64,000 nt of DNA. Origin: Thermodesulfovibrionales bacterium (GTDB lineage: Bacteria > Nitrospirota > Thermodesulfovibrionia > Thermodesulfovibrionales > SM23-35). Position 1 is the stretch's first letter. Each line of letters begins with the position of its first letter. Positions 27,001 through 30,000 of the stretch are shown in pieces. Position numbers: made by a program. The stretch is taken from positions 224,001-288,000 of the forward strand of contig CAVQRT010000030.1 in NCBI GenBank assembly GCA_963715195.1. Reading direction: 5' to 3'.

Positions 27001-30000
27001 AAGGGGATATAATAAGAACCAGGGTTTACAAGGGGATGGTCAAAAGCAAAGTGGAGGCTTTACATGCGGAAGAATAAACTGACCTATACATCGGCGATTA
27101 CCGAGCTTGAAAAGATTGTGGAAGAAATTGAATCCGGTGAAATAGATGTTGATGTTCTTACGGAAAAGGCAAAGAGGGCATCGGAGTTGATAAAATTCTG
27201 TAAAGACAGGTTGCGAAATACGCAGAAAGAAGTCGAGAAAACCTTAATTGATATAGCCGACCCTAAGGCTGAAGAAGAGTAATGTCCTGAGAGCAATAGC
27301 GAATCCTACGGCCATTATCTGCATGAAGCATCTCGGGGAACCGATGAAAGTCCTCTCGTAACCTATTGGGAGCCAAAATCTGTAAGCAGGGAAATAACGT
27401 TTCAGGAAGACACGAATAACTGGCAGATCATCGCAAAAACCATAGCCGAAGTTACCAGGGAAGTCGTTGACGATATCAAGGAGAAAGGGTACAAAAGCAA
27501 AACGGTCACCCTGAAGGTGCGATTCAGTGATTTCAAGACTTATACGAGGACAATTACACTTCAGGAGCCGACTGATTCACTCGAACATATAAGGAGATCA
27601 GTATTCCAGTGTCTTAAGAGGATTGAACTGAAAATGAAAGTCCGGCTCATCGGTGTGCGCCTGACACATATTGTTAAGAAGAAGATTAACGATAAAAAAT
27701 GCACTGTTAGATCAGGTCGATTTCTATGAGAGCCCGAAATACCCTAAGAAATGTTGACCTTGATAAAGAATGGTTAAGAAAGCAGTTAATCCAACTCGCC
27801 CTTCCCTAAAACGCTCTTCCCCGACCCAAACGACTCTTGCAATATTTCCCCTAAAGAGTAAAATATAATTAAGAAAAGGAATTGCGATACTCAGGACGGG
27901 ATTAACCTGAGGATCAGACTCAGTAAGGGAGCAGGAGTTAGATGCAGGCGAGTAGCCCTCCCGCAACGAGGAGGAAACCCAAAGCATTTACCGAAGCACC
28001 CACCTGAAAGAAAGGGCTCAAGGTATCCCGCATCTGAGATCGCAAATTATTCTGGAGCCATTTAAGGGTATTTGGTCATCCTGGCAGGAAAAGCTGAAGT
28101 TGATATTGCCAGCGTAAAGAGGTTGTCCAATCAGCTTAAACCCTTAAAATGGCTCTATTTGTTTTATGGGGTAAACAGCTTCACACTTTGATATGTAGCA
28201 GGGGCAATCCAAGCCTCTGTCTTTTATTCTCACCCTTAAACAAATTTGTTGCCCTCTGGGGGACATCGTCCCGTTCTCCCTCATGCTGAGCCTGTATTTT
28301 TGTCGGCAGGCTTGCTGCGTGATGGACTGTGTATTTCCCAAACAGTTTTGACAGTTCATCGACAGCATGATAAATCCTGGACATCTTCTCTATCCTTGCA
28401 GGGTCATCAAAAAGTGTATGCTGAACAGCTATCTCTGAGACGAGGCCGGCCAGGATAATTCCTGTCTGACGATAAAAGCTGTGAAGCTTATAAACACGTT
28501 TAAACCCGTCCCGTAATGGGCCAAAAAGGTCTGATGGATAGGCGGTAGGGCGGGTCAATTTCATCTCGATCCCGCTATTTCTGAACTCCTTCGTCCTGAG
28601 AAAGATTATGAGCCTTGTTGCAGCGAGGTTATAACGCCGCGCCTTGATACAGGCATTCTCCAGGTTTTTTGCAAGCTGGGCAAAGATGAATGTTTCATCG
28701 TTAGAGGGAGGAGTAAAGGTCTTCGCTTTGCTGATAGACTGGTAGCTGCTCTTTTCTTCTGTGGTAACGGGATAGACAGACCGTCCATTCAGCTCATGCC
28801 AGATTTCCTGGTAGGGCTTGGAGAGGTGATTCCTTATAAAGTGTTCGTCCTCTTTGGCAAACTGCAGTGCTGTTATAATGCCGTACTTTCTCAGGAAAGC
28901 AGCTGTGTTGGGTCCAATCCCCCAGACTTTTTCGACAGGAAGATCTTTGAGATAGAGATGAATATCCCTTCCCGGAATGACGGTAAGTCCGTGTGGCTTT
29001 TTATGCTTTGATCCTATTTTTGCAAGAACCTTGGAAATACTCAGTCCAATTGATACGGTAAGCCCCAATTCTTCTTCAACCGCTTCCTGCATCTTCTGGG
29101 CAATCATTCCATAAGAGCCATGAAAACTTCTCCTCAGTCCTGTCAGGTCGGCAAAAGCCTCATCTATCGAGTACTCCTCCACATCAGGTGAAAAGCGTCT
29201 GAGTATCTCAAACATTCGGAGGGAGAAAAGGCTGTATGTCTCATAATCAGAGGGCAGGATAATGATATCCGGGCAGACCTTCTTTACTTCATAGAGGCTC
29301 ATCCCCCTTTTAACACCACTGGCTTTCGCCTCATAGCTAGCTGCTGCAACAATTCCCCGTTCCTTGCCCGTTATAACAGGTTTCCCCATGAGCTCCGGGT
29401 GGATTGCCTGTTCGCAGGAAGCAAAGAAGGCGTCTGCATCCAGATGGATGATCGCCCTCGGCCACGAATGGATCGTTAAAGGCTGGTTATCCATATGTTT
29501 CCTGAAGGAGGTAAAACTACCGGTATTTTCTGACTACTGCCGTTACTACACCGGCAATCTTGAGTTCTTTTCTCGGTCTGATCAGCTGATACTTGGGATT
29601 TGCGGGAATGAGCACTACGCTCTCACCGCGTTTTTTAAGGTATTTCATCGTCCATTCACCGTCGACCTCGGCAATGACAATGTCTCCACTCTTGGGTTGT
29701 TCTCCCTTATCGACAAGCACCATATCACCGGGGAGTATGCCTGCCTCTGACATCGAATCTCCCGATACTTTCAGTAAAAAGGTTGCCTCAGGATTCTGTA
29801 TGAGGAGATCATCGAGAGACAGGTTATCAGCGAGCTCCTCCTCGGCAGGACTTGGAAATCCTGCCTCTACTGTTCCGAGCAGTTTTACCGGTAATCCTAT
29901 GGAGAGCGCTATAAGCCTTCCCTTATCATCTCGTTCGAGAACTTTTAGTTTTTCGAGTTTGTTGACGAGTCTATAGACCGCGTTTTTGGACCGAAATCCA

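Follow-up and report, generated by a model that had tools for sequence, protein, structure and literature searches.

The window, a 64,000-nucleotide stretch of the genome of a sediment bacterium from the order Thermodesulfovibrionales (the host), contains one member of a two-domain, multi-copy family of 6S RNAs that reaches up to ten 6S-type RNAs per genome and is linked, through gene order and copy number, with a clade of RpoD-type sigma factors specific to the class. 6S RNA, of which most bacteria have one, is a small RNA that imitates an open promoter and sequesters RNA polymerase. Going by homology, the members of the family, here called class C, are probably functional 6S paralogs of a second lineage, which would bind RpoD-type holoenzyme, be released through pRNA synthesis, have their transcripts ended or stabilized by a 3' hairpin, and add dose and timing through duplicates. 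An earlier note on this DNA had read the copies as a paralogous 6S family specific to the lineage. This remains the best reading, with which the structure, the reciprocal model search, the tree, and the conserved position of the pRNA start all agree.

Gene layout, rod structure, and 3' hairpin domain

The class C gene in the window is ~293 nt in length and consists of a sigma70-type promoter, a 6S-type rod, a covarying 100-nt 3' hairpin, and a U-tract. Its features and surroundings, in window coordinates, are as follows.

27837–27864 (+): sigma70-type promoter, with −35 box TTGCAA at 27837–27842, 16-bp spacer, and −10 box TAAAAT at 27859–27864
27882–28045 (+): 6S-type rod, class C (Rfam match, fold, covariation, covariance model)
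27882–27911 with 28017–28045 (+): closing stem of the rod
27912–27926 and 28002–28016 (+): central bubble of the rod, 15 + 15 nt
27927–28001 (+): apical arm of the rod
27914 (+): predicted pRNA template start (U), from alignment with E. coli ssrS, at the place of E. coli U44
28053–28165 (+): conserved 3' hairpin domain with U-rich tract (basal-stem covariation, hairpin model)
28055–28068 with 28141–28155 (+): basal stem of the 3' hairpin; the folded interior is variable
28156–28165 (+): U-rich tract
27896–28153 (unstranded): cover by an RNA-library contig, 258 nt, over rod and 3' hairpin
28181–29494 (−): DinB/ImpB-family polymerase gene, convergent neighbour; context, outside the RNA gene
29517–30146 (−): LexA/UmuD-like S24 peptidase gene, upstream of dinB; context
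27517–27729 (+): fragment of a second DinB-family C-terminal domain (PF11799, E 1.6e-11), upstream of the promoter; context

The −10 box is followed by an A+T-rich discriminator, and the transcript probably starts near 27871 and would end near 28163. The same layout of −35/−10 promoter, rod, 62–106-nt hairpin, and U-rich tract is seen across class C. A promoter was called in 23 of 30 aligned copies, with a 16-bp spacer in 20 (one of these identified by eye); of the seven copies in which none was called, three are the second rod of a tandem pair and two belong to the C3:88090 subtype, leaving two others. Similarity between non-orthologous copies begins just 5' of the −35 box; counted from the Rfam match it extends from about −42 to +292 and so takes in everything between promoter and U-tract. 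The earlier note had taken a ~176-nt element for the whole gene, but three of the four host copies extend into the ~100-nt hairpin and U-tract. The upstream promoter it had described as common to three of the four proved to be of a strong sigma70 type. An antisense ORF of 87 amino acids (27724–27987) was rejected as a real gene because its reading frame is not kept among the 30 copies: 14 differ from the window copy by a length indivisible by three, 18 have no stop-free frame, and only seven keep both the start and an open frame.

The window rod has a predicted folding energy of −59.3 kcal/mol, matching the previously given value of about −59 (z −4.26; none of 200 shuffles as good), and all four host rods fold better than each of 100 shuffles. 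A 6S-shaped structure laid on 30 class C rods has 93.2% of its cells paired, and 22 of its 44 pairs have changed on both sides, a number reached by none of 500 shuffles; controls in which the structure was slid are 28–44% paired, a comparison that is favoured by the structure having been drawn from the window copy and RNAalifold. 6S RNAs are reported to be about 150–240 nt in size (excerpts of PMC7726162). The apical arm is the best-conserved part of the rod and matches canonical 6S. Class C rods are under purifying selection, with orthologous rods beside purH being 85–90% identical as against 43–64% at purH third codon positions. One class C subfamily has a shortened 3' bubble strand and an altered apical arm.

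The two strands of the bubble are A-rich and 13–18 and 12–15 nt in length among the 30 copies, and the motifs beside the bubble align with E. coli ssrS. The third base of the 5' strand is a pyrimidine in all 30 (T in 23, C in 7). In E. coli the pRNA start site is reported as U44 (excerpts of PMC8876501), and by position a pRNA start at U27914 is predicted for the window copy. With a 14-nt template stretch blocked, no common pRNA-induced release helix was predicted among the 30 copies (local 3' hairpins of 0–13 bp, collapse pairs of 0–11 bp); in the E. coli control its 9-bp hairpin was recovered.

Transcription of the locus is weakly shown by a single contig from one study, which carries no strand, ends, or level. 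This contig, from metatranscriptome X1, is 258 nt in length, matches positions 27896–28153 with no differences, and is the only one in 4.5 kb, covering 3 of the 30 bins of 25700–30200. It fits a discrete two-domain RNA, with the reservation that the library is unstranded and DNA carry-over possible. Run X2, whose library type was not recorded, gave no full cover of the RNA gene itself.

The basal stem of the 3' hairpin is 93.7% paired in 27 sequences, with 6 of 13 pairs covarying. Its interior is 62 to 106 nt in length and contains conserved motifs. The domain is probably a terminator or stability element; a simple terminator scan did not call it because of its long loop. It was also considered as an independent element and rejected as such: a hairpin model matches 66 places in 36 of 57 genomes of the host's family, 61 of them directly 3' of a rod (coordinates compared by eye), and the other five follow rod remnants, two of which are cut by a contig end. 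Since the hairpin always stands behind a rod or rod remnant, class C is born and lost by duplication and truncation.

This domain also bears on another account of class C, in which a 6S-derived RNA of ~290 nt has changed its partner to core polymerase (as Ms1) or to a protein recruited by the hairpin, rather than sigma-holoenzyme. Ms1 is about 300 nt in length, close to class C RNA. A terminator would need less length and structure than the 3' domain has; the domain also has its conserved interior motifs and never occurs apart from a rod or its remnant, and the subfamily with the shortened bubble strand and altered apical arm would fit a shift of this kind. We nevertheless consider it unlikely, as the arm is the best-conserved part of the rod and retains its match to canonical 6S, the hairpin interior varies in length, and the C3:88090 subtype is devoid of the hairpin. 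Neither Ms1 nor any other non-6S Rfam family matches at E≤1, and B. subtilis 6S-2 likewise ends in a putative terminator hairpin (excerpts of PMC10578484).

Two 6S lineages and the distribution of class C

The class C segment at 27876–28052 of the window matches the Rfam 6S family (RF00013) end to end, model positions 1–187, at a score below the gathering cut-off (38.9 against 46.4 bits), just as had been noted. It is the only Rfam family with a match at E≤1 in positions 26500–29500 among 4227 models. The host genome has five Rfam 6S matches, namely a canonical, rny-linked 6S on contig C8 (82.5 bits) and four weaker ones, on C30 (the window copy, 38.9 bits), C3 (C3:294981, 37.9 bits), C2 (36.4 bits), and again C3 (C3:88137–88204, a partial match of 29.8 bits). 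While these four class C copies at 29.8–38.9 bits fall below the cut-off, five members outside the host genome pass it at 48.1–57.0 bits (G013, 57.0; G183, 54.9; G020, 53.2; G024, 48.8; and G003, 48.1).

We built a covariance model from 30 class C rods only. It scores the four host copies at 131–171 bits, by construction, and matches the canonical 6S over positions 1–172 with 44.8 bits (E 1.7e-7), with no further match in the host genome at E≤1. Likeness to canonical 6S, previously described as merely central, therefore runs from end to end. The model also corrects the view of the fourth copy (C3:88093–88250): the Rfam match is indeed partial, but the element is a complete 165-nt rod at C3:88090–88254 that matches class C model positions 1–172 with 131.5 bits. 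Pairwise identity among the four rods is 59.5–85.3%, wider than the 70–90% originally given. On grounds of structure and sequence the four host copies are genuine 6S homologues.

All 36 weaker Rfam 6S matches from 40 relatives were fetched and sorted into classes by their flanks, with two canonical-type or unplaced copies set aside. Class B copies stand in rRNA leaders, immediately 5' of boxA and the 16S start; class C is the family of the window copy; and class D is a small free-standing group. A tree of 69 rows separates the canonical copies from B, C, and D with support of 100/100 and shows class C as a clade (100/99), while the grouping of B with C is weak (91/64). In a tree of 87 rows with E. 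coli as outgroup, classes B, C, and D group with second copies from other Nitrospirota classes (98/99), in an analysis in which the bootstrap is unsettled and E. coli forms a long branch. On this grouping, the Nitrospirota have two old 6S lineages, with class C a branch of the second. Of 150 other Nitrospirota genomes, 76 have 6S-type rods that the class C model detects, and the Rfam cut-off misses most members of this phylum-wide second lineage.

At scores above 95 bits, 74 class C rods occur in 38 of the 57 family genomes, including the host, with the next best match at 69.8 bits; class C matches are absent from the other 19. At least two rods are present in 16 family genomes and at least four in five, which agrees with the earlier report that relatives likewise carry several copies. 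In a sample of the order, 36 of 151 genomes, belonging to six of 13 families, match the class C model at E≤1e-15, and in the phylum sample none of the 150 other genomes exceeds 69 bits. The host has five 6S RNAs. The closed genome G183 has ten of 6S type, of which eight are class C rods, one stands in the rRNA leader, and one is the canonical 6S. In G004, G010, and G183, rods are also found in tandem behind a single promoter. A binning artefact is an unlikely source of the multiple copies because closed G183 has eight rods and G003 has the same three subtypes as the host.

The four host copies represent three differently promoted subtypes, each with an orthologue in G003. The window copy and the C3:294984 copy share 520 bp, including the last codons of dinB; the window copy is one of the recent duplicates. 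The C2 copy lies at the purH locus, a location common to five other genomes. The C3:88090 subtype, which has neither the hairpin nor the promoter of the other copies, carries a CCTAC-N4-GTAGG palindrome immediately 5' of a TTGA box, an arrangement also found in G003 and G183 and at about a dozen intergenic-looking host sites. As a relaxed palindrome pattern has 18 matches in the host genome as against about 10 expected, only the extended form is telling.

Truncated class C relics, which have lost their 5' parts, exist, so some copies may be dead. The neighbours of class C genes vary and include transposases, tRNA/tmRNA, and stress genes. We considered class C as cargo of the dinB/lexA cassette and ruled this out, as just 3 of 80 related dinB loci have a rod within 3 kb. 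A phage or plasmid origin was also set aside: one exact pattern search and two blastn searches found no class C copies in viral contigs, plasmids, or phages, searches by which distant copies could be missed.

Relation to an RpoD-type sigma clade

In 19 genomes, a rod of the second lineage immediately precedes boxA and 16S. At all six loci fetched for the purpose, 16S-23S is followed within about 80–130 nt by a gene for an RpoD-type sigma factor; five of the six have a rod in the leader, and G012 and G183 agree, giving the operon order 6S-16S-23S-rpoD-type sigma. Since 23S and the sigma gene are separated by a hairpin, co-transcription of the rRNA and sigma genes is only putative. The rRNA-linked sigma gene of G010 is frameshifted in the assembly. 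The host has the same rRNA-sigma operon on C30, with a leader that retains only the closing stem around about 60 nt, and its leader 6S copy has evidently decayed. G001 and G003 resemble the host, G002 and G004 retain about 20 nt, and G010 has a full rod.

The rRNA-linked sigma heads a separate clade confined to the class, being present in 27 of 28 other genomes of the same class and in none of 122 others. In the closed genome G039 it is the only match at 1e-60, which suggests that it may be the working housekeeping sigma. We dropped the label "primary rpoD" for this gene as unproven, as the dnaG-linked sigma gene (C7:28227–29780, without a region 1.1 match) is a different one. Family genomes have 0–13 RpoD-type matches, and the host has six, four intact and two broken; the paralogous sigmas retain regions 2.4 and 4.2. 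Intact RpoD-type sigma genes of the host lie on C30 (at 95.5 kb), C31, C2, and C8, besides the dnaG-linked one on C7.

The number of class C copies rises with the number of RpoD-type matches (Spearman 0.66, 44 genomes at least 90% complete). The correlation persists after genome size is taken into account (partial 0.41, p 0.005) and on 25 genus means (0.70 and 0.59), with HSP20 as a control giving −0.14 and −0.02; kin are not independent in these comparisons, match counts include fragments, and HSP20 is a single control family. Genome size (rho 0.70) is as good a predictor of class C number as the sigma count. Rods within 3 kb of sigma genes number 7 of 74 as against 0.95 expected (141 of 172 sigma matches entered). 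Because HSP20 genes show the same closeness (4 of 74 rods where 0.3 were expected, with 60 of the 95 rows used at one per cluster), a sigma-specific physical linkage was rejected and is not counted as support. Two loci are shared between the sigma-near and HSP20-near rods.

We also rejected the idea that the second 6S lineage and the rRNA-linked sigma clade necessarily go together. Their co-occurrence is incomplete, as the sigma is confined to the class while second-lineage 6S also occurs in other classes, and in the closed genomes G097 and G136, which carry the sigma, the only model match is a 6S of canonical type. Nor do the leader copy and free copies exclude each other, as both are present in eight genomes. 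A copy number rising with sigma genes points to a multi-copy system for tuning transcription, in which class C copy number would be linked to sigma dosage.

These correlations also bear on a more neutral account, in which each genome has one functional second 6S, the extra copies are selectively neutral products of segmental duplication in variable parts of the genome, and the match to sigma number reflects larger genomes collecting duplicates. The 520 bp shared by the C30 and C3:294984 copies, reaching into dinB, would be expected from such duplication, as would the relics and the varying neighbours, and both the HSP20 linkage and the correlation with genome size are in keeping with it. We judge it improbable all the same. 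Each of the three host subtypes has its G003 orthologue, the paralogs retain pairing, promoter, and tail, and the RNA contig belongs to the window copy, which is itself a recent duplicate; further, the sigma correlation survives both size control and genus averaging, and HSP20 counts show none. That class C is a non-autonomous mobile element, or the cargo of one, that merely resembles 6S is very improbable: although it is multi-copy and scattered, has an inverted repeat at its end, and in several cases sits at a contig end or close to tRNA/tmRNA (6 of 36 loci), its unit is bounded by promoter and U-tract rather than by terminal repeats, orthologues are vertically inherited beside purH in six genomes, the rod is rare at dinB loci and was not matched in viral contigs, plasmids, or phages, and it is homologous to canonical 6S.

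Proposed function and comparison with known systems

Our preferred reading remains that class C genes are functional 6S paralogs, for which we infer RNA polymerase binding, pRNA synthesis, and termination at the hairpin. Each locus would be a self-contained gene with promoter, 6S rod, and 3' hairpin with U-tract. The ~290-nt RNA, or the rod trimmed from it, would mimic an open promoter, bind RNA polymerase loaded with an RpoD-type sigma, and be released by pRNA synthesis from the conserved bubble pyrimidine, with the hairpin ending or stabilizing the transcript. Copies would have spread by DNA-level duplication and loss, as tandem pairs and 5'-truncated relics suggest, often into variable stress/dormancy regions. 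They would have diverged in control, three host copies having the strong sigma70-type promoter and the fourth a palindromic site beside its −35 box, a site found again at other promoters, and duplicates under different promoters would add dose and timing. The likeliest purpose is a larger and differently timed titration of RpoD-type holoenzyme where RpoD-type sigma genes have multiplied.

A bolder version, possible but doubtful, is that Thermodesulfovibrionia have a matched multi-copy system. The class-specific sigma clade and the second 6S lineage would share their origin in a single rRNA operon and both would have been amplified in the host's family, with 6S paralogs under promoters of their own titrating particular RpoD-type holoenzymes or their total dose. 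If so, 6S RNAs that sort among near-identical sigmas of the housekeeping type would have their first example here. Why some bacteria retain more than one 6S RNA is a long-standing question that, to our knowledge, has been studied almost only with the two copies of B. subtilis. In the present lineage a genome can have between five and ten 6S RNAs, in promoter settings that look constitutive, are of activator type, or lie in an rRNA leader. Beside them are as many as 13 RpoD-type sigma matches and a conserved operon with a 6S RNA, rRNAs, and a sigma gene in one row. These are natural variants for asking whether 6S RNAs distinguish housekeeping-type sigmas and whether the extent of polymerase sequestration is matched to how many sigmas there are.

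Class C resembles 6S/SsrS (RF00013; E. coli and the host canonical copy) in its rod, closing stem, two-strand bubble, and apical arm, and shares with it the conserved apical and bubble-flanking motifs and the pyrimidine at the pRNA start. It differs from canonical 6S in its shorter closing stem (rod of 164–172 nt), separate tree lineage, attached ~100-nt 3' hairpin, and several copies per genome, and from E. coli 6S in having no consistent release hairpin of the E. coli type.

Ms1 and CoRP RNAs, like class C, have extra hairpins outside an open-promoter-like core. These RNAs of Actinobacteria are structured and bind polymerase (excerpts of PMC11077062), as class C would too. Class C differs in that it belongs to a different phylum, has 6S as its only Rfam match, and is clearly homologous to 6S in sequence. 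The sibling sRNA families Qrr1-5, csRNA, and Csr/Rsm are also multi-copy and are under partly distinct control (excerpts of PMC4211561); the target of class C, in contrast, would be RNA polymerase itself.

Searches of the literature on 6S in Nitrospirota/Thermodesulfovibrio, multi-copy 6S, rrn leader/boxA, and the class sigma paralogs, which took in few subscription papers, gave no description of the class C family. Two 6S genes are known in Bacilli (B. subtilis 6S-1 and 6S-2) and Legionella, and 6S paralogs are reported to be differently expressed (excerpts of PMC3923129, PMC11077062, and PMC4211561). The B. cereus group has a tandem, co-transcribed ssrSA-ssrSB pair (excerpts of PMC7726162), which the tandem rods of G004, G010, and G183 resemble. 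Magnetococcus sp. MC-1 is reported to have four 6S genes (excerpts of PMC7726162, citing Wehner 2014); four is the highest 6S copy number we found in print, a second-hand figure, and the Wehner 2014 supplement may list Nitrospirota copies. Compared with these multi-6S bacteria, there are five 6S RNAs in the host and ten in closed G183, with ongoing birth and death of copies, a lineage member in the rRNA leader upstream of an RpoD-type sigma gene, and a copy number that tracks sigma duplicates.

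6S rods and sigma genes at the rRNA operon

One rRNA operon of the genome under study has a 6S remnant in its leader and is followed by a sigma gene:

C30:95471-102010 (-), 16S-23S operon, then an RpoD-type sigma gene (further loci L267-L272, L046/L168, L121/L158)
C30:102010-101950 (-), decayed rRNA-leader 6S rod (also L138, L140, L142, L145)

The rRNA genes of this operon are 16S and 23S alone, separated by a short spacer; no tRNA or 5S gene was seen in it. The sigma gene starts no more than ~80-130 nt downstream, and the 16S-23S-sigma order is kept in all six fetched loci, which represent two families. 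Decay of the leader rod is stepwise, with the interior reduced to about 60 or 20 nt and the closing stem retained, which suggests that the stem has a role of its own in rRNA processing or antitermination. At L039, a locus of the relative G032, a leader-type rod occurs outside the leader itself: a promoter-like site of its own and boxA come after the rod, which is a possible intermediate between the leader and free-standing states.

The class-specific RpoD-type sigma clade is greatly expanded, reaching 13 matches in one relative (G183) and 11 in another (G184), and regions 2.4 and 4.2 are kept. Its matches in the genome under study are:

C31:55131-56582
C30:95471-96894
C30:293823-295218
C2:306716-308140
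C8:68341-69675
C22:4850-6256

The dnaG-linked sigma (C7:28227-29780) has no region 1.1 match, and certain genomes of the order, the closed G039 among them, yielded no second match.

Variant 6S RNAs and the window neighbourhood

In a subfamily of class C, the multi-copy 6S-type family, the 3' bubble strand is shortened and the apical arm altered:

L115:3001-3160
L119:4918-5087
L120:3001-3159
upstream rods of L052, L056, and L064

These rods are often first within a tandem pair, and pRNA release may be lost or changed in them. Second-lineage 6S RNAs without a tail occur in other Nitrospirota classes (L077-L082, L086, L088, L110, L111, L114), and free-standing group D occurs in the same family as the genome under study (L037, L042, L124, L126-L128). 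Most of these RNAs, where scored, fall under the Rfam cut-off.

Two further features lie in the window:

27282-27729 (+), what is left of a second, broken DinB-family gene, with xseB on one side and the RNA gene on the other
19673-20827 (-), ArsC-like reading frame that continues into one for an Acr3-like transporter (seen in the ORF list alone)

The remnant faces an intact dinB. The transporter frame shifts out of frame part-way, likely through assembly errors.

A palindrome at the fourth 6S copy

The palindrome CCTAC-N4-GTAGG, immediately followed by ATTG, recurs at promoter-like positions of the genome under study:

C3:88289, 90990, and 91138
C7:125247, 125286, 345742, and 418002
C2:212180
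C6:50196 and 65861
C34:12668

It is a candidate activator-binding site, and the fourth 6S copy (C3:88090 subtype) would belong to that activator's regulon. Its spacing resembles that of NarL-family regulators.
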